Virus record (IMG/VR): IMGVR_UViG_3300013006_001433
Location: 1-64,000 of that record
Direction: 5' to 3' (one strand)
Length of the DNA: 64,000 bases
DNA from: a virus
Positions 6,322 to 56,690 of this stretch are shown piece by piece. The notes below the pieces were generated by a model, which searched no databases, was not told the origin of the DNA, and worked only from the letters and a program-made list of their open reading frames with translations. Each line of letters opens with the position of its first letter. Positions within the stretch are counted from its first letter, which is position 1. The position numbers and the translations under genes were made by a program.

Positions 6322-6350
6322 ATTATATATTATATATTAGTTAATATCAA
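6322..6350 (-). promoter_or_regulatory. Sigma70-type promoter TTGATA-N17-TATAAT
   Basis: 8 nt upstream of ATG 6313. Confidence 0.6.
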
Positions 6351-7585
6351 GCTTTTTTCTTAATAAAAACTTTTTCTATTATTGATAATCCCTTGTCGCA
6401 TCCTTCTTTATCTATTGTCAAAGGCGGTAAAGCTATTAAAGAATTATTATCTCCAGAAGTGCACCACATCAATCCATTATTTATAAATTCAAAGAATAGT
6501 CTACCTACTAAATAAGTATTTGGTGTTCTGTCGACTTTATTGATTAATTCAACGGCTATCATTAATCCAATGCCCCTTACTTCTAGTGTTTCTTCTGGAT
6601 AATATTTTTTAAATAGTTTTTCTATATTCGTTCTTAAATACTCTCCCATTGTAATTGAATTTTCGCATAGCTTATCTTGTTCTATAATATCTATATTAGT
6701 TTTAGTTATACTAGTTGAGTATGGGGTCCAGGAGAAAGTAGCGGAAATATCTCCAAATTTATATTTTTTTAAATATTCTTCTTTCACAAGAACTGCTCCA
6801 ATTGCGGAATAACCAGAAGATACGCCTTTAGCAAGTATAATTGCATCTGGTTCAATTTTAAAATAATGCGAAGCAAGCATGTGCCCTATTCTTCCAAATC
6901 CAGTAATTGCTTCATCTAGGATAAGGAAAATATTTCTTTTTTTACATATTTCATAAAATTTTTTCCAATAATCTTTATGGGGTATAATAACTCCTCCGCT
7001 ACCTAAGATTGGTTCAGCTATAAATATTTTTATGTCTGGATTATTATCGAAAAATTCTTCTACTTCTTGCATGGATTCAGAATAGGAATTTGGCGGATCT
7101 AGTTTAATTGATTCATAACCTTTTCTAACGAATGGAAGTTTAAATTTTACTATTTCTCCCATTCCAAGCGTGGCTTGACTCCATCCATGATAAGATCTTT
7201 TGAATGTACCAATTTTGCCATTGGTTATATTAGAGAAAATTGATAAAGCTACTTCATTTGCATTTGCTCCACCAGTAGCTCTTAAACATTTATACTTAGA
7301 TTGTGGAAAAAAAGAAATTAACTTTTTAGCTAGTTCGTCAGCTTCTTGAGTAGGCATCCAAGGAGGGGCGTAATTTGATTTATTAATTTGCTTTATTTGA
7401 GCTTGTAGCATTTTAGGGTTCTGCCAACCAATATTGGCCACTCCATATCCTGCAGAAAAGTCAATATATTCTTTACCTTCTACGTCTATTAACGTATAAT
7501 TTTTGGCAGTTTCAAACGCTGCTGGAATTAAATAAGCAGATGCCATATTATTTTTTAATGATTTGTATAGCAATTTATTGTTCAT
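6347..7585 (-). CDS. Class III PLP-dependent aminotransferase
   Basis: DVEGKEYIDFSAG, SYHGWS, EPILGSGG, DEAITGFGRIG, AKGVSSGY (PLP Lys). Confidence 0.88.
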   Translation of the reverse strand: MNNKLLYKSLKNNMASAYLIPAAFETAKNYTLIDVEGKEYIDFSAGYGVANIGWQNPKMLQAQIKQINKSNYAPPWMPTQEADELAKKLISFFPQSKYKCLRATGGANANEVALSIFSNITNGKIGTFKRSYHGWSQATLGMGEIVKFKLPFVRKGYESIKLDPPNSYSESMQEVEEFFDNNPDIKIFIAEPILGSGGVIIPHKDYWKKFYEICKKRNIFLILDEAITGFGRIGHMLASHYFKIEPDAIILAKGVSSGYSAIGAVLVKEEYLKKYKFGDISATFSWTPYSTSITKTNIDIIEQDKLCENSITMGEYLRTNIEKLFKKYYPEETLEVRGIGLMIAVELINKVDRTPNTYLVGRLFFEFINNGLMWCTSGDNNSLIALPPLTIDKEGCDKGLSIIEKVFIKKKA

Positions 7586-9103: not shown

Positions 9104-9857
9104 ACTTTTTATGTCTTAAAATATATGATATATATCTTGAGTGTCCTTTTCTAAAAGATTCTAAAGTAGAAATAAAATTATATCTTTGATGTAGAATTAA
9201 GTCGTTCTCTAGTAATAAAGCCCCATGAGTTGGTATATTTTCTTCAAAACCAGTAAAAACTATTATATCGTAAATTTTTAAGTCTTTAATAGTTTTTGGA
9301 TTTAAAACTTCAAATCCAACTCGATGATATTCACTTTCATATTTTTCAAGTGACCAAGCGTGTTCGTTAACAGTTTTAAGATCGTTATATGATAAGCCTA
9401 TCCTTTTTGGACTATTTTTTAAGCTTATATCTAAATCTAGTTCATTTTTATAAAAATCTACTATTAACGTTTCGCAATCTGTGACCCCTAATTCATAAGG
9501 TCTATTTATATATTTCTTGTAACATTCTTTTTCTTTTGGATCAAAAATATAAAATTTATCACTTTTAATATTATAAAGATAGTAAACAAGATTATGCTTA
9601 AAACTATTTACAATATCATGAAAAGAAAAAGATAAATTTTTAATATGGGAATGGAAACATCCTATTATATCTCCATATTGTTTTGCATATAGATAACATA
9701 ATGGATCTATAGCAAATGACTCCATTTTGCTTAAAGAGATATTTTTACTTTTTAAAAAGATTTTATTATTTTCTACCTGTACGACAAGACCGCAAGCTTC
9801 TTCTTTTTTATATTTTAATGCATGTTCCTTGGCTTGTATTAAAAAGTCATTTTCCAT
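9096..9857 (-). CDS. Tail assembly protein K-like (JAB/MPN plus NlpC/P60), paralog 1
   Basis: EEACGLVV, FHSHxxxxxFSxHD; RPYELGVTDC...PTHGALLL...ILH; start refined to MENDF, overlapping the upstream stop. Confidence 0.8.
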   Translation of the reverse strand: MENDFLIQAKEHALKYKKEEACGLVVQVENNKIFLKSKNISLSKMESFAIDPLCYLYAKQYGDIIGCFHSHIKNLSFSFHDIVNSFKHNLVYYLYNIKSDKFYIFDPKEKECYKKYINRPYELGVTDCETLIVDFYKNELDLDISLKNSPKRIGLSYNDLKTVNEHAWSLEKYESEYHRVGFEVLNPKTIKDLKIYDIIVFTGFEENIPTHGALLLENDLILHQRYNFISTLESFRKGHSRYISYILRHKKYA

Positions 9858-10956
9858 GAGCAAAACCTTCATACATGCTGTTGGGGCTATTTCTCACTGC
9901 TTGTATTGTGTCATTCCATAGTCCACCTCGCATATCTTGTAGATTTCTGAATCCTAAATAACTCATAGCACTTCTTAAGCCATTAGTAAAATCATAAACT
10001 ATGTCCTCTATAGTTTTATTTTCTACAATAGGAATAAGAGTATTATCTCCTTCAACAAAAAGATTTTTCTTTGTCCCATCGTGAAGGTCATAATCTTCGA
10101 CAACGTCTTGACTTGCCATTCCTCTATACTTAGCGAATCTTTTTCCATCTATTTCAATAATATTTTCATCATCAACTACATCAGCTAATCCAGCAAAAAT
10201 TCTTCCACAAATAACTGCGTCGCATCCACTAGCAATAGCTTTAACTAAATCCTTTGGATAACGAATACCGCCATCAGCAAGTATACTTGGTCTATGTTCT
10301 GGATTGGGTTTGTCTTGTTTGAATAGATCAACTTGCGACAACTCCCAATTCCTTACGGCTTTCCAAGCGTAATAATTTCCAGTTAAACTCGGACATCCAA
10401 TTCCAGTTTTTACTTGAGTTAAACACATCGAACCTGGTCCAATCAAGTGTCTAAACCCATCTGCTTTTAAATTCGCTAATCTATAAACACTTTCTTTAGT
10501 TAAAGTATTACCGACAATGACATCTTGAGAAAATCCAGAAGTTTTATACCATCTAAGAAAATCTTCAACATTCTTGGCCAAACCATTAGCAGTATCCAAA
10601 AAGTAAATATTTGTAAATGCGCTAGTAGCTCTAATTCTTTCTTCTGCGTCTTTTAAACCAATGGCTGTAACACAAAAATTACTTTCATCTTTAATAATTT
10701 TAGCTTTTACTCTTTGGTCGTCAATGGACATAAATCTATGTAATACTCCTGCTGCGCCAAGTTTATTAATTTTAATACAAGATTTAACTGAAGATACAGT
10801 ATCCATTGGGGAAAGAATAATTGGAATTTTAATATTACAATTCCTTGATATCTTAGTAGTTGTATCTACCTCTTTCCTAGAGGTTATATCTGAAAAATTT
10901 GGGAGTAATGAAATATCATCGTAACTTAAGGCTTCTTTGAATTCTTGTTTTTGCAT
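9847..10956 (-). CDS. guaB: IMP dehydrogenase / GMP reductase family enzyme lacking CBS domains
   Basis: ALSYDDISLLP, SPMDTV, GVLHRF, IGPGSMCLT, ADGGIR, YRGMAS, GLRSAMSY. Confidence 0.8.
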   Translation of the reverse strand: MQKQEFKEALSYDDISLLPNFSDITSRKEVDTTTKISRNCNIKIPIILSPMDTVSSVKSCIKINKLGAAGVLHRFMSIDDQRVKAKIIKDESNFCVTAIGLKDAEERIRATSAFTNIYFLDTANGLAKNVEDFLRWYKTSGFSQDVIVGNTLTKESVYRLANLKADGFRHLIGPGSMCLTQVKTGIGCPSLTGNYYAWKAVRNWELSQVDLFKQDKPNPEHRPSILADGGIRYPKDLVKAIASGCDAVICGRIFAGLADVVDDENIIEIDGKRFAKYRGMASQDVVEDYDLHDGTKKNLFVEGDNTLIPIVENKTIEDIVYDFTNGLRSAMSYLGFRNLQDMRGGLWNDTIQAVRNSPNSMYEGFAHGK

Positions 10957-12800: not shown

Positions 12801-13385
12801 ATGATTATAGGTATAACTGGTGTCGCCAGATGTGGAAAAGATACATTTTACTCTATACTTAAAAAATACTTAGAGGAAAGGCAACTAAAATCTCAAAGAT
12901 TAGCCTTTGCTGATGATCTTAAAGAAGAGCTTAATGGATTTACTAAAGAAAAATTTAAAATAGATTTATTTAAATGCGATGGTGTGGATAAAGAATTAGT
13001 ACGACCTTTAATGGTGGCTTACGGAAAATGCAGAAGAAGTCAAACAGAAGGTAAGTACTGGACATCTAAATTGGACCCTAAAGTAGAAAAATTATTAAGA
13101 GAACAAATTGTTCCAATTATTACTGACGTAAGATACATTGAGTATAAAGATGACGAATACTCATGGTTAAAATCTCATAATGGCATATTAATCCATTTGT
13201 CTAGAAAATTAGATGATGGAAGTTTTGTGCCACCAGCAAACATTGAAGAAAAAGCGAATGATAATAAATTGAAAGCTGTAGCTGATTTTTCTATATGTTG
13301 GGAAACTTGTCAAGATACAAATTTCTTGTATGAACTTATGCAGAAAAACTTAAGGAATATATATGACAGACTTAGACCTAATTAA
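12801..13385 (+). CDS. Deoxynucleoside monophosphate kinase
   Basis: IIGITGVARCGKDT P-loop, LAFADDLK, ITDVRY; start refined from the promoter. Confidence 0.8.
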   Translation: MIIGITGVARCGKDTFYSILKKYLEERQLKSQRLAFADDLKEELNGFTKEKFKIDLFKCDGVDKELVRPLMVAYGKCRRSQTEGKYWTSKLDPKVEKLLREQIVPIITDVRYIEYKDDEYSWLKSHNGILIHLSRKLDDGSFVPPANIEEKANDNKLKAVADFSICWETCQDTNFLYELMQKNLRNIYDRLRPN

Positions 13386-13947
13386 AAATATAAAAAATAA
13401 CCAAGATAATGAATCTCTTAAATGCCTAATACATAGACATAGTGGAATTTTTTGTGAGATTATAAAAAGATATCAATCTTTTATAGCTCAAAAAGGCCAT
13501 GACCCAAAAGATCTTTATGAAGATAAAGATGTTATCGTATATCAATCTGCTCTTTCTTTTAATGAAGATAAGAATGTGAAATTCTCTACTTGGTTAGGGA
13601 ATCAAGCCAGATATCATTGTTTGAATTTTTTAAATAAAAATGCCAAATTCTTACCTACAGATAATGAATATCTTCAAAATATGATAGAGAATTCTCAAGA
13701 TCAAAAAGAAGACATGCAAAAAGAAAATTGCGATTATTTTCTTAATATTCTAAAATCCTTAAAAGATAAAAGAGTATATAAAATATTTAAAATGCGTTTC
13801 TACTCTCCAAAAAAGAAAAATCGTTCTTGGAATGCTATTGGTAAAAAATTAAATATAAGTACCCAAACTGTTATTAATATATATAACAAGCACATTCATT
13901 TCTTAAAAGTCAAATCATTTAAAAATAATTTTAATGATCAGATATAA
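13363..13947 (+). CDS. Phage-encoded sigma70-family sigma factor
   Basis: Region 2-like SALSFNEDKNVKFSTWL; region 4 HTH SWNAIGKKLNISTQTV. Confidence 0.75.
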   Translation: MTDLDLIKNIKNNQDNESLKCLIHRHSGIFCEIIKRYQSFIAQKGHDPKDLYEDKDVIVYQSALSFNEDKNVKFSTWLGNQARYHCLNFLNKNAKFLPTDNEYLQNMIENSQDQKEDMQKENCDYFLNILKSLKDKRVYKIFKMRFYSPKKKNRSWNAIGKKLNISTQTVINIYNKHIHFLKVKSFKNNFNDQI

Positions 13948-13951
13948 TTTC

Positions 13952-13980
13952 TTGACTTTTTATTATAATAGCAATATAAT
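13952..13980 (+). promoter_or_regulatory. Sigma70-type promoter TTGACT-N17-TATAAT
   Basis: 8 nt upstream of ATG 13989. Confidence 0.75.
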
Positions 13981-13988
13981 CATAAAAT

Positions 13989-14348
13989 ATGAATACACAA
14001 CAAAAAAATAATAGTACTAATACAGAAGCTAACCAAAAGAACAACGATTGGTCTAAAAGAGAAATCGGTGCTCTTTGGAAGAAGGATGGTCCAAGTCAAA
14101 AATATCTATCTGGATATTTGACGATTGATGAACTTGGAACAAAAACTAAAGTAAATGTAGTAGTATTTAGTAACAAAAATAAATCAAAAGATACTGCTCC
14201 TGATTTTAGAGTATATCTTTCAAAAGAAAATGCTCCAGCTCAAGCTTCTGCTAAAGCTACTATTGAAACTCCAGCTAAAGCTGTAGTCGCTCCAGTAGCC
14301 AAAGTAAAAGTTAAGCAAGTAGAGGAAGTCGAAGAAGATCTACTATAA
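13989..14348 (+). CDS. DUF736-like protein with acidic tail (possible ssDNA-binding protein)
   Basis: IGALWKK...YLSG...NKNK...APDFRV; C-terminal EEVEEDLL. Confidence 0.55.
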   Translation: MNTQQKNNSTNTEANQKNNDWSKREIGALWKKDGPSQKYLSGYLTIDELGTKTKVNVVVFSNKNKSKDTAPDFRVYLSKENAPAQASAKATIETPAKAVVAPVAKVKVKQVEEVEEDLL

Positions 14349-15433
14349 TGGATCTAGCTTGTAATTTACCTTTAAACAATTTAAGTTTCGGGCAAACATC
14401 ATTTGCTCTTATAAAAAACTTATATGAAAAGGAATTTAAAGCTAAAATATTTCCAATTGGAGGAAATGTAGATCTATCCTCTCAAAAGTTAGATCAAAAT
14501 CTTGGCGCATGGATAAAAAATTCTATTGATAGAGCTAATTTGAGTTTCTCAAGAAAAGAGAAGATATTCAAACTTTGGCATATCAATGGATCACTCGAAA
14601 GTTTTGCAGAACGTCAAGTTCTGTTTTCTTTCTATGAATTAGATTCTCCTACTGCTGTAGAGCTTAATATAGTAAAAAATAATCATAAGGTTATATTTTC
14701 TTCTAAATATACTTGTGATATATTCAAATCTCTTGGATGCGACAATATTGAGCATATTCCATTATTTTTTGATAATAATAATTTTTCCGTAAAGGATAAG
14801 AGTTATAGTTCAGATGATAGAATAGTTTTTAATCTAGTGGGCAAATTAGAGAAAAGAAAGAATCATAAAAAAGTAATACAATCTTGGCTTAAGAAGTATG
14901 GAAACGATAGAAAATATTTTTTACAATGTTCTATTTTTAATCCATTCTTAAAACAGGAAGATCAAAACGCATTGATTAATTCTATGTTGGAAGGAAATAG
15001 ATATTTTAATATTTCATTCTTAGGACATATGCAAGCCAATGAAACTTATAATGATTATTTAAATAGTGCAAATATTATTCTAGGAATGAGTGGTGGTGAA
15101 GGGTGGGGATTGCCAGAATTTCATTCTTTAGCTTTGGGTAAACATGCTGTAATATTAAATGCTCATACTTATAAAGATTGGGCTAATGATAATAACTCAG
15201 TTATGGTAGATCCATCTGAAAAAATAGAAGTATATGATAATATGTTTTTTACAAAAGGCTCTCCTTTTAATCAAGGTAATATCTTTTCGTTTAAAGAAGA
15301 AGCTTTTATTGCTGGTTGTGAACAAGCAATTAAGAGATACGAGTCTAATAAAATTAATACTGCTGGTCTAGAACTTCAAAAGAAATATACTATAGACAAT
15401 ACAGTCTCTCAAATATTAAAATTAATGGAATAA
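14348..15433 (+). CDS. Glycosyltransferase (GT-B, GT4-like)
   Basis: VGKLEKRKN, SGGEGWGLPEFHSLALGK. Confidence 0.8.
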   Translation: MDLACNLPLNNLSFGQTSFALIKNLYEKEFKAKIFPIGGNVDLSSQKLDQNLGAWIKNSIDRANLSFSRKEKIFKLWHINGSLESFAERQVLFSFYELDSPTAVELNIVKNNHKVIFSSKYTCDIFKSLGCDNIEHIPLFFDNNNFSVKDKSYSSDDRIVFNLVGKLEKRKNHKKVIQSWLKKYGNDRKYFLQCSIFNPFLKQEDQNALINSMLEGNRYFNISFLGHMQANETYNDYLNSANIILGMSGGEGWGLPEFHSLALGKHAVILNAHTYKDWANDNNSVMVDPSEKIEVYDNMFFTKGSPFNQGNIFSFKEEAFIAGCEQAIKRYESNKINTAGLELQKKYTIDNTVSQILKLME

Positions 15434-15434
15434 T

Positions 15435-15785
15435 ATGCCAGAATATTTATATCAGCATCCTACTGATGGAAGAACGATTTGCTTAATTCAAGGAATCAAT
15501 GACAAACATGAATATACTGATGTAAAAGGCGTTAAATGGAATAGGCTATTTACTAGTCCACAGATAAATTCTCAAGAAAAATTATCAGTAAATTCGAGTG
15601 ATAAAGATTTCGCTAGGGTAACTTCTTCTCAGCGAGGGAATGTTGGTGATCTTTTCGACAGAAGCAAAGAGCTTTCTGAAAAGAGACAGCAGCTCTATGG
15701 TAAAGATCCAGTTAAGAATAAATACTTTAAAGACTGGAGTAAAAAACGCAATGGAAAGAAACACCCTAAATCACATTCAGATTGA
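15435..15785 (+). CDS. FmdB-like hypothetical protein (Zn ligands lost)
   Basis: MPEYLYQHP resembles MPxYxYxC. Confidence 0.45.
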   Translation: MPEYLYQHPTDGRTICLIQGINDKHEYTDVKGVKWNRLFTSPQINSQEKLSVNSSDKDFARVTSSQRGNVGDLFDRSKELSEKRQQLYGKDPVKNKYFKDWSKKRNGKKHPKSHSD

Positions 15786-15786
15786 T

Positions 15787-16116
15787 TTATTTTTTATTTA
15801 AATGGTTTTGTATTATATCGAAATTACGATCTAATTTCGCTTCTATTCTATCAAAATAAACTTCAAAAGATTCTTTAGTAACATAAGTAGTACTTATCTT
15901 TAAAGCTAAATCGGCTATTTCTTGTTGGTGCTTTCTTCCTTCTAATTCCATTTCTTTTCTTAAAGTAATAAAATCGCTAAAGGTTTTATCATTAATTTCC
16001 TTCATAAGATTCTCTTGTTTATCAAAAAGAGAGAACACTCTAGTAAACAACCATCCTCCGAGAAAGGATAAAGCTCCTAAAATGACATTAAATAGTATTG
16101 TAATATCTAAATTCAC
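15787..16116 (-). CDS. Membrane-anchored coiled-coil protein (possibly lysis-related)
   Basis: N-terminal TM helix plus coiled coil; GTGTAA 8 nt upstream. Confidence 0.5.
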   Translation of the reverse strand: MNLDITILFNVILGALSFLGGWLFTRVFSLFDKQENLMKEINDKTFSDFITLRKEMELEGRKHQQEIADLALKISTTYVTKESFEVYFDRIEAKLDRNFDIIQNHLNKK

Positions 16117-47249: not shown

Positions 47250-48107
47250 TTATAATCCAGAAAGTGCAGATATCAGAGTATTCACTCTAGCTTTCAACAA
47301 AGTCATATCCAAGTATTCTCCTATAGAATAAAAAGCTATTCTTGCTGGTACACATTCGCTAAGGCTATTATTTAGATTGGCCCGACCAAAAACTAAATAA
47401 TTTGTTGTTGCATCTGGAGTTACACTTGCTACACTAGAAAATGTATAGCTTGATGATGCTGGAGAAGTAGTAAGTGGATAATACAGAGTATGTTGAGAAG
47501 TGCTATTTTTTGTAACACCATAGATACCTGCTACATGAGAAGAAGTTCCATAAGGAGTGAAAATTTGGCTTTGAGTGGTTCTAGCGCCCGCACCCATTCC
47601 CAATGCTCCAGAAGTAGCTTTAAAGAAAGCAATATGGGAAAGAGAAGTTGTTGGTGATCTTGCCCCAATAAGATAATAATAAGTAGCATTTAGCGGAATA
47701 GTATTACTATGATGATATACTGATAAATGAAAATTATTTTGAGGATCTGCATTATGGGCTCTATTACTATTTAAATACTTAGTAGTACCATCACTTAAAA
47801 GACCAGTGCTTCTACTATAATCAGAAGATGTAAAAAAAAAGCTAGTTGGGGCAGTTCCTTTTAAGGGTACAAGAGCGCCATTTAAAGTTCTTGCGCCAGC
47901 AAGTATACAACAACTTTTTATAGCATCCCATATTCCATCGCTTTTGCATCCATCTATAAAATTATTAATAGCTGTTTTTACTGAAGACTCTAATGATTGA
48001 CCATCAGCAGCCTCAACAGCAGCAATATATGTTGATGCTTCTGTTACAACAGAAATAGAATCTGAACGGCTTATAATTCCAAAAGAAACTGATGGTAATA
48101 TTATCAT
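47250..48107 (-). CDS. Tail-associated hypothetical protein
   Basis: Overlaps the gpJ stop; YIAAVEAADGQSLE...GARTLNGALVPL. Confidence 0.55.
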   Translation of the reverse strand: MIILPSVSFGIISRSDSISVVTEASTYIAAVEAADGQSLESSVKTAINNFIDGCKSDGIWDAIKSCCILAGARTLNGALVPLKGTAPTSFFFTSSDYSRSTGLLSDGTTKYLNSNRAHNADPQNNFHLSVYHHSNTIPLNATYYYLIGARSPTTSLSHIAFFKATSGALGMGAGARTTQSQIFTPYGTSSHVAGIYGVTKNSTSQHTLYYPLTTSPASSSYTFSSVASVTPDATTNYLVFGRANLNNSLSECVPARIAFYSIGEYLDMTLLKARVNTLISALSGL

Positions 48108-51100
48108 GCAGCTGTATTTCCGTACATTAAATATCCATTATTTCCTGTATGGAGTAGTGAAATTCCAGCGTATTGTCCTGCTGTTTTGTATTGATTATTG
48201 TAACTATTAATTAATACTCCCACTCCAGAACCAGTAATTTGAATTTGTCCTGCTCCAATTTGAATTATTGTAGTGTTAAATCCTGTAATATTTCCACTTA
48301 CTATTGTACCTGTAATTAATATAGCCGAATTTGCGAATATCATTCTTGCATTTTGTGTTCCAGTAATATTAAAATTAGCAGAAACATTTAAAAGGTCTGG
48401 CACAGCATTTATTATTTTTCCATTTTTAAAATCTATTCCAGAAGCAAATACGCCACTTCCACTAACATTTAAATTTCCACTTATTGTTAGATTTCCACTT
48501 ATTCCTTGATCTCCAGTTATGTAAACTACAGAATTATTAAGTGCATTTGTTTGACTTTGTAATGAATTTCCTGTAGATATTAAATCACTAGCTAAAGCAA
48601 TTCCACTATTATTCAAAGTTAAATTTCCAGAAGGCATGAAGTTTATATTATTACCAGTTATCACTACATCTCTTAAAATTCCAAGATTAGTTTGTTGAGC
48701 TCCAATGATTAAATTATTATTATTATTCCAACCAAAAACACCATATTCTCCAGTATTCGTACCAGTTTTATTGAACACTCTTAAGTTTTGTGGATTAGTA
48801 CCACTAATAATATTTATTCCAGTTGTGAAGCTTTTTACTCCACCTATGTTTTGATTACCAGTAGTAAAGACCGTTCTTCCACTTAAATTTGTTACTGCTG
48901 ATTGTAAAGCAAATCCTGTTAGTATTAAATCTCCACTGACTTGATCTATTCCACTTTGCAAATAACCACTCATCGCTAGAATTTCTGAAGTATTGAAAAC
49001 ATTACTTAATGTGCCAGTTGCTGAAATTGGTCCATTAGTAGCCCAACTTAATGCTAAAATTTGATTTGTTAATTTTCTATTGAATCTTACTCTATCTAAA
49101 GACACTTGATTTCCTGGATTTGGAAATCTAAAAAATGGATCTTGATCTAAAAATGTATAATCTCTGTCATATCCAGTAAATGTTAACCATTCATTAATTA
49201 ATGTATCGTAAGGCTTTATGTTAACGTAACCACTTTTAATAGGATTTCCATTATTAGAAAAAGATGAATTAGTTGAAAATACATCATCTGTTCCCATGTA
49301 CATTTCTCTAACTTGAACTCCACTACTATATAATTCTGCTACCCAACTTTTAGTTTCGTCTGATAAAGCTTGATTTATGATTGAAGTGATATTCGCTTCT
49401 TGAAGCATGCTTTCTTTTGTTTCACTATAAAATACAAAACCGCCCTTAATATCAGGGTATAAAGCTTTTAGTCCTGGAGTAGATAAATTAAAATTATTAT
49501 CTGCAGTAATACCTACATTAATACTATAATCACCACCTACAGGAGGTTTAAGATCAAAAGATACATTATCATTTTGAAAATATCCCACTAAATAACCATC
49601 TGCATTTGTAAATCTATTAGAAGCTGGAGTTGATTGAGATGTCCATTTTCCTGCTGCGCCTGTTCGAGAATCTATAGCTATATAAAAACTGTTAATTGGT
49701 AAAGTAGCAAAAAAATTCAATCCACTATTGTTTGTATTATTTGGATATAGCGAATAACTTATATTCGCCCCATTGTTTTCAGCAAATCCAGTAAATGTAG
49801 ATGTATATATATTATTTTCAGAAAAAGTGCCAGTTATATAATCAATTCTAAATTCAAGATCTTTTGCTTTCCAAGTTTTTAATAAAGGATATAAATTATT
49901 AATTCTCCAAGCTAAATTTATTCCATAATCTCTAAACTTATTTGCAGTAAGTAAATTTGAATTTACACCACTTAAGCTATCAAGGGTTGTTGAATATTCA
50001 AAATTACTTAATGTAATAAAATTTGTAGCATCATTTAAATTTGCATTTAAAAAAGTTATAGGATTAGGGGATCCAGCAAGATAACCATTTGAAATATATC
50101 CATAACTATTTAATCCATAAGCTCTAAAATAATAATCTCCATTCACCGCATCTAGTCCAAAAGAAGAAGATGGATTTGTAACTACTATTGAGCCAATTTG
50201 AAAATCGTTTTTTGGAGCTTGTATTGAGTTTCCTTGATTGTTATAAAAAACAGTAGTAAGATCACCAGCATTAAAATCACTACCAGTCTTAGCAAAAATT
50301 TTCCAATAGGTCGTTTCTCTTGCTCCTGGTCCACTAGTTGGTTGAGTTTGAGCTCCAATTACTCCACTTATTCTTAATTGATTTGTATACGAAGTTAAGT
50401 TAAAAGAAGAGGGTGTTCCTGCATCAAGAATTGTTGTGCTTCCAGGATCTACTACTGGAGCTTCTGAAAGAGAAATTCCAGATTCAATTGATGAATATTT
50501 AGAAGGATTGTATTCAATTGCATTAATATTAAACTTATGAGATTCATTTTCTGTTATACTTATTACTTTAAATAATTCAGTTTCTGGAGTTAGATAAAAA
50601 TTACCTGCACTACCAGTTTGTTCAATAGTCCAAACGGTTCCAGTTGTTAAAGCGTAGTTAGTTGTGTCGAATAATTTATTACAAGTAAGTCTTGTTATTG
50701 CTCTGTCTGGAGTAGGGTTATATCCAGAAATTCCACTTATATTGTTTATAGAAAATAAGCCAGTTTGTATTTCGGATCTTTGATATCCAGTAAGAAAATC
50801 ATTAAAAGTTGTTCCAGTAGTTTTATGCGTAGGAGTTAAAATATTAAATTTATATTGCGGAGCAGAAACACCATTTAAATAACCAGTTAAATCTGAATAT
50901 GATTGATCTAGAATAAATTCGTGAGAAGATGGTGTGGTTTTAATTCCTAAAATTCTTCCACCTAATCGATCTACTGTTCTATTACTATCCTGAATTTTCA
51001 CTATATCTCCAGGATTTAAATATAAAGCATCATATCCTACTGTAAAATTAACTGTTTCTGTTTCATATTGCTCACTAGCTAACGCCCATTTTCCAATTCT

Positions 51101-53185
51101 ATAAGCTTGACCGCGACTCGTACATCCAAAAGCAGTAATTTCAATTTTTCTAACTCCATATTTTCTTAAACCTTCTGGATCTTCTGCGTATTCTATAGTT
51201 GGTTTTGCGAAATTAGACATATCATTCCATCTAACTACTGCAACAGTATTTCTTACTTTTCTACTGCTACTTGAATAAATAAATTCTCCATTTTCTACAC
51301 TACTATTAGTAAATAAAGTCGATGCCTCTTTTGGCATATCTGCTGTAGCGTATATTAATCCATTAGCATAATAAGATAACCCTCTAAAAATACTTGCAAA
51401 ATCATTTATCAAAGTAAATGCATCAGAGAAGTCGTTAATAACTGTATTACATGTAAATCTTGGTTCTAGTCCTCCAATACTATATCCATCTGAAACAAGA
51501 GTGTCGCAGTATCTCGCAATTTGATAAAGATTCCATTTGTCAACATCATAATTTTTAATATACTTTCCTAATCCATATCTACTATTCGTGAGTAAGTCGT
51601 AATAACACCAAGCTGGATTATCTGTCCAATATAAACCTACAGGTAAGGACTGATGAGAAACATCAGAAAATTGACCATCCCAATCTCCATTGTATGTTTT
51701 TCTAATTGGATCGTAATTACTTGGTATTTTTACTTTTAATAATCTAACATCATAAGCCCTTGGTGGAACTTGACTAAAGTATTCAGTAGTAAATAAACTT
51801 TTAAACATTGCAACTTTTGGATATATAAATTTTTCTGCAAAAATTTCAGTAATAGTTGCTACACTAGCAACATCTCTTAAATTTATAACTTTAGATTCTG
51901 CAGATGTTCTAGTAATCTCTACTCTCCAACCGAGAAAGGAAGATTCTTCTGTATTTATATTATAAAAAGAAGAAACATCAAAATCAAATCTATGTAAAAA
52001 TCCACTCGTTACTTTACCAGAACTAGAATCATCTCTATTTATAACTAAATTTTCAGAAAATCCAGATGAACTATTGTAACTTAATTTTTTAATTTTAAAA
52101 TTATAAGTGATTGTTCTATCTCGAATATCACCAATTGTTGTGGATTGTTTATAGCCTCCAGGATAATCAGCTCGATCTAAATTAGGATCATTTTGTTGGT
52201 CATATAAAGAGTCAATTTTAATTGCTACAATAATTTTATTTACATTTTTTGATCTTAAATCAATTACTTTCTTAAAATCCGATCCATATCTTAAAGGTTC
52301 ATTAATATTTAATGTTCGTGAAGCATAAGGTAAGGAATCATAGGTATTTGTAGGCGTTAAACTACCCAAATTACTTTGCAAAAAATTGGCAGTTGTTTGA
52401 GTTCCATAATCTGCTCTAAAATTAATAGATGTATAATTAAAATTTCCTGCATCATCAATTAATGGAACTTGCTTCCAATAAACTGATCTTAATTGTGGAT
52501 TGCTTCCAGCGTAAGAAGCAAAATTCGCGGTTGTCCATCCTACATTTCCAAGCGTACCATTATAACTATAACTACCAGACACTAAACCTTCGATTGGTCC
52601 TTCGCAAACTAAATCTGAAACTTCTGTTTCTGTTCTTGAAAGTTTTTTTGCTCCCTCTACAACAACACCTTCTTCAGCTTCTACTGGAGTGTGAGGTGGA
52701 GGCGGAGGCGGAGGAGGCGGTGGTGGTGGAGGTGATCTTCCTCCTTTGTTATGCACAAATATATCTTCTGCAATATAAGTATTATATTTTTCTACAGTAA
52801 AATTATAAACAGTAGAATCATTATTGATAATTTCTATATGATCTATTTTTATTCTTTCACCAAATCTATCTACAATCAAATCATCTGTAGTAAAATTTGC
52901 AATTTCAATAAATTCATTATTTTGATTTAAAAAAGGATGGTTTGGAGTAGTTCGAATTTTTTTATCTTTAAAAAATACATCAATAACTTTTTCATTATTA
53001 TGTATGAAAACATTTTCAACTGTACTAATTTTTATAGATAAATCTTTATCAAAACAAAATACTGAATCTCCAATTTTAATATCTTCAATATTTTTATATC
53101 CAAAAGGTGTATATATTTTTGTTCCAGCGACAAAACATCCTGCGCCTTTAATTAATTCATTAGGTAAAATATATTTTTTACTCAT
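48104..53185 (-). CDS. Tail tip / central fibre protein (lambda gpJ-like) with N-terminal Hint domain and fibre-like C-terminus
   Basis: HTPVEA, EGPIEGLV, VKIPSNYDP, WTDNPAWCYYDLLTNSRYGLG, EPRFTCN, AFGCTSRGQAYRIGKW, PGDIVKIQD. Confidence 0.9.
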   Translation of the reverse strand: MSKKYILPNELIKGAGCFVAGTKIYTPFGYKNIEDIKIGDSVFCFDKDLSIKISTVENVFIHNNEKVIDVFFKDKKIRTTPNHPFLNQNNEFIEIANFTTDDLIVDRFGERIKIDHIEIINNDSTVYNFTVEKYNTYIAEDIFVHNKGGRSPPPPPPPPPPPPPHTPVEAEEGVVVEGAKKLSRTETEVSDLVCEGPIEGLVSGSYSYNGTLGNVGWTTANFASYAGSNPQLRSVYWKQVPLIDDAGNFNYTSINFRADYGTQTTANFLQSNLGSLTPTNTYDSLPYASRTLNINEPLRYGSDFKKVIDLRSKNVNKIIVAIKIDSLYDQQNDPNLDRADYPGGYKQSTTIGDIRDRTITYNFKIKKLSYNSSSGFSENLVINRDDSSSGKVTSGFLHRFDFDVSSFYNINTEESSFLGWRVEITRTSAESKVINLRDVASVATITEIFAEKFIYPKVAMFKSLFTTEYFSQVPPRAYDVRLLKVKIPSNYDPIRKTYNGDWDGQFSDVSHQSLPVGLYWTDNPAWCYYDLLTNSRYGLGKYIKNYDVDKWNLYQIARYCDTLVSDGYSIGGLEPRFTCNTVINDFSDAFTLINDFASIFRGLSYYANGLIYATADMPKEASTLFTNSSVENGEFIYSSSSRKVRNTVAVVRWNDMSNFAKPTIEYAEDPEGLRKYGVRKIEITAFGCTSRGQAYRIGKWALASEQYETETVNFTVGYDALYLNPGDIVKIQDSNRTVDRLGGRILGIKTTPSSHEFILDQSYSDLTGYLNGVSAPQYKFNILTPTHKTTGTTFNDFLTGYQRSEIQTGLFSINNISGISGYNPTPDRAITRLTCNKLFDTTNYALTTGTVWTIEQTGSAGNFYLTPETELFKVISITENESHKFNINAIEYNPSKYSSIESGISLSEAPVVDPGSTTILDAGTPSSFNLTSYTNQLRISGVIGAQTQPTSGPGARETTYWKIFAKTGSDFNAGDLTTVFYNNQGNSIQAPKNDFQIGSIVVTNPSSSFGLDAVNGDYYFRAYGLNSYGYISNGYLAGSPNPITFLNANLNDATNFITLSNFEYSTTLDSLSGVNSNLLTANKFRDYGINLAWRINNLYPLLKTWKAKDLEFRIDYITGTFSENNIYTSTFTGFAENNGANISYSLYPNNTNNSGLNFFATLPINSFYIAIDSRTGAAGKWTSQSTPASNRFTNADGYLVGYFQNDNVSFDLKPPVGGDYSINVGITADNNFNLSTPGLKALYPDIKGGFVFYSETKESMLQEANITSIINQALSDETKSWVAELYSSGVQVREMYMGTDDVFSTNSSFSNNGNPIKSGYVNIKPYDTLINEWLTFTGYDRDYTFLDQDPFFRFPNPGNQVSLDRVRFNRKLTNQILALSWATNGPISATGTLSNVFNTSEILAMSGYLQSGIDQVSGDLILTGFALQSAVTNLSGRTVFTTGNQNIGGVKSFTTGINIISGTNPQNLRVFNKTGTNTGEYGVFGWNNNNNLIIGAQQTNLGILRDVVITGNNINFMPSGNLTLNNSGIALASDLISTGNSLQSQTNALNNSVVYITGDQGISGNLTISGNLNVSGSGVFASGIDFKNGKIINAVPDLLNVSANFNITGTQNARMIFANSAILITGTIVSGNITGFNTTIIQIGAGQIQITGSGVGVLINSYNNQYKTAGQYAGISLLHTGNNGYLMYGNTAA
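52694..52732 (-). repeat. Poly-proline tract (13 Pro)
   Basis: Mixed CCT/CCA/CCG codons just after the Hint domain. Confidence 0.95.
52748..53137 (-). other. Hint / bacterial intein-like domain (130 aa) inside gpJ
   Basis: CFVAGTKI block A, TTPNHPF block B, VYNFTVE...TYIAEDIFVHN blocks F/G; +1 residue is Lys. Confidence 0.88.
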
Positions 53186-53188
53186 ATA

Positions 53189-53881
53189 TTATGTTGTACG
53201 TTGATCTGAAGATGATGGAACATAATTATTATTATAAGAGGCAGATATAGTTTTTGATCCAATTAATAATCTTCCGTATCCTATTGGAATTGGTCCACCC
53301 TCTCCAGCTGTATTAGATGGTCCATCAAAAAGATAAGATTTTCCACCACCACCTTTTGGGCTGGCTACGTCTGGTGCAGAAAATTCTGGAGCAAGATAAG
53401 GAGGCGGAGAAGATAATAAAGAAGCAAATCCTGCTGCTGCAAGACCAATACCTCCTATAATTAAACCTATTCCCAGAGGAGCAGCGGCACCAGTAGCAAT
53501 TAAAACGACTCCTACAACTATCAGAGCAATACCAAATATTGCTCCGAAAAGACCTCCACCACCTCCAGCGCCTTCAATTATGGGTATTATATCTATGCTT
53601 TTTAATTCATCATCTTCAAATTTAGTCATTAAATTTGAATTAAAGACCCTATCAAAATCGTCTCTAATTTCTTCTTCATTCTTAAAACATTTAAAATCTC
53701 TTTTATTAACTAGAACTCTATATTTTATATTTTCTTTATCTAATTCTTTTAAATTTTTATAAAAAATTTGAGTATTTGCTTCAATAGCTCTTATTGCTTC
53801 TGAAACACTATTAACACTAAGTGACCAATTATTTTTTTTAATTTTTTCTCCAATTATACCATGTAGTTGTATGTTTACCAT
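53189..53881 (-). CDS. Tail assembly protein I (ubiquitin-like N-domain)
   Basis: IQLHG...SVSEAIRAI...IDIIPIIEGAGG, TM-like Gly-rich segment, SYLFDGPSNT..EGGPIPIGYGRLLIGS. Confidence 0.88.
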   Translation of the reverse strand: MVNIQLHGIIGEKIKKNNWSLSVNSVSEAIRAIEANTQIFYKNLKELDKENIKYRVLVNKRDFKCFKNEEEIRDDFDRVFNSNLMTKFEDDELKSIDIIPIIEGAGGGGGLFGAIFGIALIVVGVVLIATGAAAPLGIGLIIGGIGLAAAGFASLLSSPPPYLAPEFSAPDVASPKGGGGKSYLFDGPSNTAGEGGPIPIGYGRLLIGSKTISASYNNNYVPSSSDQRTT

Positions 53882-55015: not shown

Positions 55016-55585
55016 TTATATATTTGAAGTCTCTACAAAAGTAACAGATATATTATAATTATTAAAAAATACATATCTTATAGACCAATCTTCACAAATA
55101 AATCTTTTTGGAAAATTTTGCGAAGTACTGTCAAAATTATATGGAAATGGTGCATCAAAGAAAAAATGTTGAGCCCCTCTTCTTTTACTTACAAAATGAG
55201 TTATTGCTCTTGTTTCTTGTTTATCTCTACCTTCAAATGTTAAGTTTAATTTTAGTAAAGTATTATTAATACCGTCTTCGGTTCTTTGTTCATAACCATC
55301 ACCAAATTTTACAAGATTCATTGCTGGTTTAGATTGAATTTCTGAAGCATAATTTGATACCCAAATGAATTCTGGAGCTGAAACTCCAGCAGCAAAAGCG
55401 CTACTATAAGACCTATATCCTCCCCAATATGAATTAGCGGCCGAAGTAGGGGTATTACCAATATTATTATTAACTAGACTATAATAATATTGTCCATTTG
55501 ATGATGGGTGATATACAATATCATTCTTACTGTAAGTAGTAGAATTACCATAAACGCTTACGTCATATATCGAAGATTCTGCCAT
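55016..55585 (-). CDS. Minor tail protein M (distal tail) with N-terminal extension
   Basis: VKFGDGYEQRTEDGINN, FICEDW, ISVTFVE. Confidence 0.85.
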   Translation of the reverse strand: MAESSIYDVSVYGNSTTYSKNDIVYHPSSNGQYYYSLVNNNIGNTPTSAANSYWGGYRSYSSAFAAGVSAPEFIWVSNYASEIQSKPAMNLVKFGDGYEQRTEDGINNTLLKLNLTFEGRDKQETRAITHFVSKRRGAQHFFFDAPFPYNFDSTSQNFPKRFICEDWSIRYVFFNNYNISVTFVETSNI

Positions 55586-55637: not shown

Positions 55638-56690
55638 ATGTTAGCTAGAATTTCCAAACAAAATCAACATTTATATATCAATAATACTGGCATTGTTGGA
55701 ATCCAGAATTTTAATGCAAATTACGCCAGCCCAATAGAAATAGTTAAATCTCTTGGCATGGAGTCAGTAACATATCATAATAATAGTAATGTAACAGCCG
55801 AAATTACTATAAATAAACTACTTATAGACAATGATCCATTTATTAATTTTATTGATTATGATAATACGTTTTCTGGTCATGTTGATTATAAAAGTAGATA
55901 TTTTGCATTTAATTCTGGTGTTTTAACTAATTATAGACTTGGATGTTCGATTGGGGAAATTCCCCAATTAAGCGTCACAATTAATACATTGGGAGAATTT
56001 GGTAGTGGAGTCGCTAAACCAAACACGACATCTCTTCAACAACCAGAAATTGATATAACAGACTATTCGAATATAGAGATTGATTTGGATGATTTTCAAT
56101 TTAATAGACTTCAATCTTTTAATTTAAATATAACTTCAAATAAAAATATTATATATGCGATAGGCAATTCATATCCAGTTGATATTAAAATCATCCCTCC
56201 AATTATCGTTGAATTGGAATTTGGAATCAAACCAGACGATTATAATTTGAAAAACATAAGAGATTTATTATGTAAATATAAAGTAGACTCTTTTAGTATT
56301 AGATTTAATAAATTCAAAGATCCTTCTCAAGAATTATTTAGATTCACATTTAATGAAGCTTTATTCATGGGAGAAACTTTTGGTGGATCTGCGGATAGTT
56401 CTTCGGATGTTATTATAAGGTATCATGCATTTTTATATGATCAGAGAAATATAACTTTATCTACTCCGTTAAATATTGGTGATACTGATGATCTTAATCC
56501 ATCTCCAGAGTCAGAAATAACTACCTCTTCAGCTTTAGCAATTGGTGATACGAATGACCTCAATCCATCCCCAGAGTCAGAAATAACAACTTCTTCAAAT
56601 TTACCAATTGGAGATGCTAATCTTTATGTACCTTTGCCAGAAGATTCAATCACAACATCTAATATAATTCCTTCTGACGCAAAAGATTAA
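55638..56690 (+). CDS. Putative tail structural protein (tube-like duplicated domain) with C-terminal repeats
   Basis: Shares motifs with 57531..58373 and 58374..59186; late-type promoter. Confidence 0.55.
   Translation: MLARISKQNQHLYINNTGIVGIQNFNANYASPIEIVKSLGMESVTYHNNSNVTAEITINKLLIDNDPFINFIDYDNTFSGHVDYKSRYFAFNSGVLTNYRLGCSIGEIPQLSVTINTLGEFGSGVAKPNTTSLQQPEIDITDYSNIEIDLDDFQFNRLQSFNLNITSNKNIIYAIGNSYPVDIKIIPPIIVELEFGIKPDDYNLKNIRDLLCKYKVDSFSIRFNKFKDPSQELFRFTFNEALFMGETFGGSADSSSDVIIRYHAFLYDQRNITLSTPLNIGDTDDLNPSPESEITTSSALAIGDTNDLNPSPESEITTSSNLPIGDANLYVPLPEDSITTSNIIPSDAKD
56451..56660 (+). repeat. Three ~66 bp (22 aa) tandem repeats
   Basis: ITxSxxLxIGDTxDLNPSPESE twice plus a degenerate third copy. 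Confidence 0.85.

Follow-up and report, generated by a model that had tools for sequence, protein, structure and literature searches.

How does the central tail fibre protein of a phage come to carry a Hint domain only 16 residues from its start, and what is the domain doing there? The question is raised by the window studied here (the whole analysed stretch of 64,000 nucleotides), which is the first 64 kb of the 78-kb IMG/VR virus record IMGVR_UViG_3300013006_001433, a record estimated to be about half complete, with a G+C content of about 29%. The gpJ-like protein of this window is encoded by a single open reading frame (ORF), and its residues 17–146 are a type-A bacterial intein-like (BIL, or PT-HINT) Hint domain. 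This Hint moves horizontally, is exactly present or absent at one site, and has intact catalytic residues that are under purifying selection. The answer that we consider probable is that it is a type-A BIL which cuts itself out of the protein and travels as a mobile passenger in the glycine linker of gpJ. No second Hint is found elsewhere in the 78-kb record.

An initial annotation of the locus had described a leader, a domain starting with Cys and ending in His-Asn, and a KGGRS-P13-HTPVEA continuation, and this layout is correct to the residue in the translated frame of 1693 residues (Table 1). Gly16, at the end of the leader, is the residue that would bear a thioester. As the domain has only 130 residues, there is no room for an endonuclease, and the position following it (+1) is occupied by Lys147, so that the absence of an endonuclease domain and of a Cys, Ser or Thr at +1, also part of that annotation, is borne out.

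The BIL-type assignment holds as well when profiles, sequences and predicted structures are compared. The Pfam family PT-HINT (PF07591) matches the domain with 40.6 bits (cut-off 27.7; E 3.7e-10) over profile positions 3–136 of 137, the NCBIfam models of the intein N-terminal and C-terminal motifs are both over their cut-offs, and Pfam Intein_splicing stays under its own. When all PDB sequences are searched with phmmer, the top match, at full length, is 2LWY, the type-A 'bacterial intein-like domain' of C. thermocellum (E 3.3e-13), and the best true intein reaches only E 4.3e-4; the domain is therefore closer in sequence to a type-A BIL than to inteins. An AlphaFold2 model built with a 40-sequence alignment has a pLDDT above 90 over residues 20–146 (a single-sequence model of residues 1–250 has a pLDDT of 34). 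With this model, Foldseek finds BIL2 of Tetrahymena BUBL1 (6Y75/6TMM) first and then 2LWY, with mini-inteins behind, at a probability of 1.00 to BILs and inteins. The residues C17, H83, H145 and N146 are invariant in the 40 gpJ Hints of the alignment, down to 31% identity, and G16, T80, G148 and G149 are nearly invariant.

The way in which the domain is inserted becomes clear when it is compared with relatives, collected by a search of 5.8 billion proteins with gpJ residues 1–330 and by a HMMER search of 1.84 billion cluster representatives, followed by custom Hint and gpJ-body profiles. The HMMER survey finds about 50 gpJ proteins with a complete Hint, about 40 of which have it after a leader of 8–43 residues ending in a glycine run. 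The Hint-bearing relatives P0005–P0017 and P0019 are 51–97% identical to the window over residues 1–330, and P0018, P0020 and P0022–P0029 are Hint-less. P0018 is 88% identical to the gpJ of the window in a 760-residue segment of the body. At the same spot, P0018 and P0020 have the same leader as the window and read ...IKGAG-G/R...GGGS-Pro10-HTP.E, following the Hint-less pattern in which leader-G-A-G runs directly onto a G/R-rich linker, a proline run and H-T-P. In the DNA, the Hint-bearing junctions are GGA GCA GGA / TGT...CAT AAT / AAA GGA GGA, and the Hint-less alleles have GGA GCA GGA / GGA GGC GGA. The insert is an exact in-frame block of 131 codons, consisting of the C...HN Hint and one AAA Lys codon. 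Removing the domain thus does restore a typical gpJ start, as had been proposed, since the Hint-less P0018 and P0020 show the uninterrupted leader and linker at this place. The linker itself is native to gpJ, and proline runs of 8–13 residues are kept in both the Hint-bearing and the Hint-less members of this gpJ clade; in the window, 13 consecutive prolines separate the Hint region from HTPVEA. A sister clade reads P-P-P-C-Y-P-S-P-P-P-D-P here. The proline run is probably a rigid spacer and may call for EF-P in translation.

The residues next to the Hint are also informative. The equivalent of Lys147 is found in 15 of the 15 members of the Hint clade of the window and is absent from the Hint-less alleles; because it is tied to the presence of the Hint in this way, the +1 Lys belongs to the insert and not to gpJ. 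Among 47 N-terminal gpJ Hints, Gly is found at -1 in 44, and the +1 residue is Gly in 29, Lys in 17 and Ala in one. The +1 residue is Gly in eight and Lys in one of nine Hints of gpI, and in six Hints located in the middle of gpJ it is R, I, M or G. In none of these 47, nine and six Hints is a Cys, Ser or Thr present at +1. In 313 related non-tail Hints, which are the top of one search and no random sample, Lys is the commonest +1 residue (195 of 313), and Gly is at -1 in 178. A large protein family (P0096–P0104 and others) has three to five tandem Hints joined by K-G(-G) linkers and followed by a Tim44-like domain; its junctions read G / C...H-N / K-G-G / C, and Lys dominates at +1. When the phages of GenBank are searched with tblastn, no gpJ relative with this Hint is found; the matches, with an identity of about 30%, are inteins of other genes, such as those for thymidylate synthase and NTPase.

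Both the sequence divergence and the phylogeny point to an element with a history of its own. When the window is compared at codon level with five Hint-bearing loci, the ratio of nonsynonymous to synonymous substitution (omega) of the Hint is 0.21–0.42, and it is therefore kept as a working protein. Its synonymous divergence (dS) to L086 and L085 is 0.39 and 0.32, as against 0.78–0.96 for the gpJ body, in what is a semi-quantitative contrast. The Hints of P0009–P0013 are 82–85% identical to that of the window, their gpJ bodies 60–63%, and in P0016 this relation is reversed (Hint 54%, body 67%). On the tree of gpJ bodies, the presence of the Hint requires at least five gains or losses, with well-supported Hint-bearing/Hint-less sisters (P0010/P0025 and P0017/P0023) and with P0018 nested in the group of the window itself. 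Approximately unbiased (AU) tests on the Hint alignment reject the gpJ-body clades {P0009, P0016} and {P0010–15, 17, 19} with p 2e-60 and 6e-49; these clades, both strongly supported on the body tree, were named after both trees had been seen. Among the 80 best related IMG/VR loci, 11 have any Hint, solely in gpI or gpJ, and 69 have none, and tandem Hint duplicates are found in P0021, P0105 and P0107. The patchy presence, the conflict of topologies and the lower dS of the Hint together form the signature, at population level, of a mobile element of intein-like character, exchanged by recombination between alleles at a single site, and not that of a fixed component of the tail.

By homology with the type-A BILs, the following course of events can be proposed. 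After translation, Cys17 would attack the carbonyl of Gly16 in an N-S acyl shift aided by Thr80 and His83, generating the Gly16 thioester, and the cyclisation of Asn146 would cut the Asn146-Lys147 bond, on which the Hint would leave the protein. The freed amine of Lys147 could then attack the thioester and rejoin leader and body (aminolytic splicing), or the thioester could be hydrolysed, and gpJ would then start at Lys147. The initial annotation stated that canonical splicing needs a +1 nucleophile and that BILs mainly cleave. The second part agrees with the literature: type-A BILs, which have a C-terminal His-Asn and no +1 nucleophile, give predominantly cleavage products (PMC4031507). The missing nucleophile, however, does not exclude splicing, as type-A BILs can ligate their flanks by aminolysis, the amine that Asn cyclisation releases acting on the thioester at the N-terminal junction (PMC4031507). 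Both outcomes would yield a functional gpJ, the Hint-less alleles representing the working joined form and the lambda-type proteins a form without leader. The insert would be tolerated because the linker is flexible and chain connectivity there is of little importance, and it would persist and spread via recombination between related gpJ alleles, as a passenger that is not required for tail assembly.

Several points weigh against the reading of the Hint as a mobile self-excising passenger. Its activity is predicted from conservation, and dS values of about 0.8–0.95 are near saturation at 29% G+C. Were the leader simply thrown away, there would be little reason for Cys1 and block B to be so strictly conserved behind leaders of only 8–30 residues; this points to a possible productive use of the thioester, by splicing or transfer, such that 'just cuts itself off' may be an incomplete description. 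The +1 Lys, which travels with the element and is so common in the non-tail Hints, is explained by no model of a selfish passenger. Finally, the Hints of gpJ are an old and diverse family that falls into two clades with good support and, at 50% identity, into dozens of clusters, and this would also suit a useful, domesticated role.

When compared with known systems, the domain has the fold, the block A nucleophile, the T-x-x-H motif and the block F/G motifs of the Hint superfamily, and shares most with the type-A BIL of 2LWY (Amitai 2003 and Dassa 2004, as cited in PMC4031507): about 130 residues, Cys1, block B T-x-x-H, a C-terminal His-Asn, no Cys, Ser or Thr in the C-flank at +1, no endonuclease, and a place in a variable, low-complexity part of the host protein. 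It differs from type-A BILs in that its host is a phage central tail fibre and not a bacterial secreted or surface protein, in its position 16 residues from the N-terminus with a +1 Lys that travels with the insert, and in its intein-like population behaviour (precise presence or absence, movement between alleles). The linker is variable, but it lies within a conserved phage structural protein. With class 1 mini-inteins (gp41-1, NrdJ-1, DnaB), the domain shares the fold, the four catalytic motifs, in-frame insertion with exact presence or absence among alleles, horizontal spread and purifying selection on the splicing residues. In contrast to them, the tail-tip Hints, about 60 copies, all lack the +1 nucleophile that defines the canonical class, the similarity is much weaker (E 4e-4), and the insertion site is a Gly/Pro low-complexity linker and not a conserved functional motif. 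The PT-HINT domains of the polymorphic toxins (RHS/WapA, MafB, CdiA-type) are near relatives, as seen from the family cut-off and from Paenibacillus RHS-toxin domains, which are the next-best full-length relatives after the gpJ proteins (35–40% identity). However, PT-HINTs are placed directly upstream of a C-terminal toxin domain, whereas the C-extein here is the structural gpJ body (Phage-tail_3, PHROG 31), and in the Hint tree the PT-HINTs of RHS proteins stand in a clade apart. Phage tail spikes and fibres also have a domain that removes itself, the S74 intramolecular chaperone autopeptidase (PMC7824862). Its fold is unrelated to that of the Hint, its chemistry is of the Ser/Lys type, and it lies at the C-terminus, where trimers need it to fold; the Hint lies at the N-terminus, and sister alleles do without it.

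The same Hint family is also found at other sites of the tail tip. In L010, L012, L044, L046, L050, L053 and L055 (and in L020/L021 and P0124), gpI has 371–442 residues instead of the usual approximately 230, with a Hint inside. It is placed directly after the ubiquitin-like tail (…P-[IV]-[LIV]-E-G-A-G-Gn / C…H-N / G-G-G-G-K-G-G) and before the hydrophobic helices, and the gpI profile splits cleanly around it. Most of these phages have a further Hint at a second site in gpJ, inside long gpJ proteins, which start MAKKCKDCDPNKYIEG, between an N-terminal part of 230–1090 residues and the body (L010, L012, L053; P0031–P0036, P0121). At this position, L046 and L050 have a direct fusion without Hint, L055 has two genes, with the stop and the ATG exactly at the Hint position, and P0121 retains a Met at +1 of its Hint. 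The two-gene junction of L055 might be read as evidence for cleavage only, but this is weakened by the direct fusions at the same site. A Hint tree of 112 rows has well-supported, site-specific clades (gpJ N-terminal K-type, gpJ N-terminal G-type, gpI and mid-gpJ); its deep relations lack resolution, and RHS-toxin and MG2-protein Hints are interleaved among the tail-tip clades. Because the Hints form site-specific clades, the tail-tip sites appear to have been colonised long ago, with exchange mainly within a site, and recent hopping between the gpI and gpJ sites is not seen in this tree. Common to all sites is a flexible glycine linker between hub modules. In lambda, gpI, gpL and the N-terminal part of gpJ form the hub and jointly correspond to a single hub protein of T5, gpI plugs the lumen and is ordered only from about residue 101 or 135 onward, and gpK is outside the virion (PMC10721106, PMC11101478). 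A Hint that does not need clean splicing would be tolerated at the hub joints, because connectivity there varies in nature.

The likeness between the leader of gpJ and gpI had been pointed out in the initial annotation, and both IKGAG of the leader and IEGAG of gpI are present in the translations. Residues 98–110 of the gpI of the window read I-I-P-I-I-E-G-A-G-G-G-G-G; this gpI consists of a ubiquitin-like domain followed by hydrophobic helices and a C-terminal part, and has no Hint. Across relatives, the gpI tail has the consensus [IV]-D-[IV]-[IV]-P-x-[IVL]-x-G-[AS]-G, and the gpJ leaders, of Hint-bearing and of many Hint-less proteins, end in h-h-x-G-x-G(G)n (h, hydrophobic). The likeness counts for more in view of the related phages in which a Hint of this family follows the gpI motif. 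The motif could mark a common protease site, as the JAB domain of gpK is predicted to act on gpI, cutting where the ubiquitin-like domain has its final glycine (Iyer et al., PMC1779556); alternatively, it could be the preferred N-flank of the Hint, in view of the frequent -1 Gly of the non-tail Hints. In the distant gpJ proteins P0188, P0238, P0240, P0234, P0184, P0154, P0186, P0216 and P0218, h-h-x-G-x-G-G-G is found on both sides of the Hint (leader …I-I-G-S-G-G-G / Hint / G-G-H-R-E-R-F-P-x-h-h-x-G-x-G-G-G-G-K-G-G), which looks like a duplicated target or a cassette bringing its own leader.

The annotation had further suggested a circuit of the Hint with gpI and the two JAB proteases of the window, acting in tail-tip processing or in defence against ubiquitin-like modification. 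The two tandem gpK-like genes (JAB and NlpC/P60) are 44 kb away from gpJ and the tail-tip genes, amid genes of nucleotide metabolism. The order M-L-I-J without gpK characterises the entire clade and is common to the Hint-bearing L086 and L005 and the Hint-less L007 and L008, and the phages with a gpI Hint retain gpK (JAB and NlpC/P60) between L and I, directly upstream of gpI. A Hint that compensates for a missing gpK is thereby ruled out and, because the gpK arrangement is independent of the Hint state, gene content gives the proposed circuit no support. The defensive variant, in which the Hint and the two gpK-like genes shield gpJ from bacterial Bil-type ubiquitin-like conjugation, is barely conceivable: deubiquitinase domains of phage tails have been speculated to be anti-defence (bioRxiv 10.1101/2023.09.04.556158), but nothing connects the Hint with Bil, and the Hint-less relatives have the identical gpK arrangement.

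The function of the Hint, if it has one, could lie in the maturation of gpJ. In such a domesticated device, timed self-cleavage would govern the folding, the trimerisation or the entry of gpJ into the tail-tip initiator; for example, the Hint could keep the N-terminus unavailable until cleavage, comparable to what S74 chaperone domains do at the C-terminal end of tail spikes. The long-term purifying selection on the catalytic residues would fit, as would the two deep gpJ-specific clades and the gpI-specific clade, which mark the Hints as long-term residents of their sites, their confinement to gpI and gpJ among the 80 related loci, and the structural sensitivity of the termini in the lambda hub (the N-terminal part of gpJ, gpI and gpL; PMC10721106, PMC11101478). 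However, very close relatives, even sister alleles, work without the Hint, as do most of the related loci, and the movement between alleles and the tandem duplicates resemble the behaviour of an element more than that of a tuned switch. We therefore regard this explanation as unlikely, and the built-in maturation switch of the initial annotation finds no support in a domain so patchy and so prone to horizontal movement. Another proposal, an inert relic that no longer processes and stays on the gpJ of the virion as an N-terminal decoration, is very improbable: none of the catalytic positions varies and omega is far under 1, the gpJ N-terminus is located, by homology with lambda, in a crowded hub, and from the Hint-less alleles it is seen that mature gpJ can do without the domain.

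It is also conceivable, if quite doubtful, that the Hint is an acyl-transfer device, in which either the epsilon-amine of Lys147, with a branched isopeptide as the product, or a lysine of another tail protein takes up the acyl group of the Gly16 thioester, without ATP or E1. A precedent is the BIL2 of Tetrahymena thermophila BUBL, the top fold match, which conjugates the upstream ubiquitin-like domain to lysine by an isopeptide bond without ATP (PMC8616854). In this system the BIL follows right after the C-terminal Gly of a ubiquitin-like domain, and the same layout is present in gpI of L010, L012, L020, L044, L046, L050, L053 and L055 and in P0124; in these phages a reaction of this kind would link the ubiquitin-like domain to a lysine with neither E1 nor ATP, as a tail-tip counterpart of the ciliate BUBL, which we likewise hold to be improbable. 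A thioester-to-lysine reading would explain why Cys1 and block B are invariant even on leaders as short as eight residues, why a Lys at +1 travels with the Hint and why the gpJ leader and the gpI ubiquitin-like domain have the terminal motif h-h-x-G-A-G in common. On the other hand, the N-extein in the window is a 16-mer and contains no ubiquitin-like domain; it only resembles the last strand and tail of that of gpI. The identity to BIL2 is about 21%. At +1, Gly is found instead of Lys in the majority of gpJ and gpI Hints, the element has a patchy distribution and can be dispensed with, the acceptor is purely putative, and Gly-rich flanks would be equally favoured by simple aminolytic splicing. 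In our view, the passenger that excises itself from a glycine linker accommodates this evidence best, at the level of a probable explanation.

Table 1. Positions of gpJ features and neighbouring genes in the window, and of Hint sites in related loci
Feature	Position	Strand	Basis or remark
gpJ-like central tail fibre ORF, 1693 aa	48104–53185	minus	single open frame, translation
N-extein leader, residues 1–16, end I-L-P-N-E-L-I-K-G-A-G	53138–53185	minus	translation
Hint domain, residues 17–146, 130 aa, type-A BIL / PT-HINT kind	52748–53137	minus	profiles, structure model
Block A nucleophile, Cys17 of gpJ Hint			
Block B, Thr80-x-x-His83	52937–52948	minus	
Block G, His145-Asn146, junction F-V-H-N / K	52748–52753	minus	
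Lys147, +1 residue	52745–52747	minus	translation
Gly-Gly-Arg-Ser and 13-proline linker, native to gpJ	52694–52744	minus	Pro-rich linker also in Hint-less P0018, P0020
Run of 13 prolines	52694–52732	minus	
HTPVEA motif, residues 165–170	52676–52693	minus	gpJ body profile starts at HTP.E
Lambda-gpJ-like body, central tail fibre / tip attachment protein	48104–52693	minus	Pfam Phage-tail_3, E 2.7e-16; PHROG 31 'central tail fiber J', E 7e-131
gpI-like tail assembly/plug protein	53189–53881	minus	PHROG 32, E 8.5e-35; translation
IEGAG of gpI, residues 102–106	53564–53578		
gpL-like minor tail protein, 371 aa	53899–55014	minus	Pfam Phage_tail_L, E 1.2e-33
gpM-like distal tail protein	55016–55585	minus	Pfam Phage_min_tail, E 4e-19
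Two tandem gpK-like genes, JAB and NlpC/P60	8345–9103 and 9096–9872	minus	JAB motif H-S-H...S-x-x-D in each
Adenylosuccinate-synthetase-like protein, 330 aa	3274–4266	minus	
Class-III aminotransferase	6347–7585	minus	
GMP reductase/IMPDH-like protein	9847–10956	minus	
350-aa ORF in tail block	55638–56690	plus	
gpI with Hint	L010:9650–10957; L012:9641–10945; L044:9641–10957; L046:9638–10960; L050:5333–6655; L053:9641–10960; L055:9638–10966; L020:3734–4849		
Mid-gpJ site, Hint-joined	L010:10950–16877; L053:10964–16330		
Mid-gpJ site, direct fusion	L046:10893–15950; L050:6612–11720		
Mid-gpJ site, two genes	L055:10971–13016 and 13019–15934		

Some neighbouring genes of the window are also of note. 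The gpK-like pair adjoins the GMP-reductase/IMPDH-like gene, and the same region has a class-III aminotransferase and a short adenylosuccinate-synthetase-like protein; for the latter, a PurZ identity is rejected, with the PurZ model at 101 bits (cut-off 300) and PurA models higher. Within the tail block, one ORF of 350 residues has the opposite orientation. It has no Pfam, PHROG or NCBIfam match and no nuclease motif, and its C-terminus has three serine/threonine-rich repeats of about 22 residues each (…I-G-D-T-x-D-L-N-P-S-P-E-S-E-I-T-T-S-S). As this is the sole oddly oriented gene of the tail block, a nearby homing endonuclease is discarded as a candidate.

In the full-text literature, whose coverage leaves out most subscription journals, no description of a Hint, intein or BIL on a tail fibre, on a tail tip or in gpI or gpJ is found. 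Type-A BILs have so far been studied in a few surface proteins of bacteria and at a single locus of a ciliate, and the context is now extended to the tail-tip proteins of many uncultured phages, in which the Hint behaves as an endonuclease-free mobile intein that never bears a +1 nucleophile. For annotation and engineering, such tail fibre genes would encode a precursor, with a predicted mature N-terminus that differs from that of the ORF. The tail-tip copies are a natural test set for the fate of the BIL thioester (hydrolysis, aminolytic splicing or transfer), and they could show how a Hint without homing endonuclease spreads. If the ligation reading is true, an E1-free ubiquitin-like conjugation step would be added to phage assembly; if the passenger reading is true, this would be a clean case of a selfish element that acts at protein level and takes advantage of linkers in which an unbroken chain is of no consequence.

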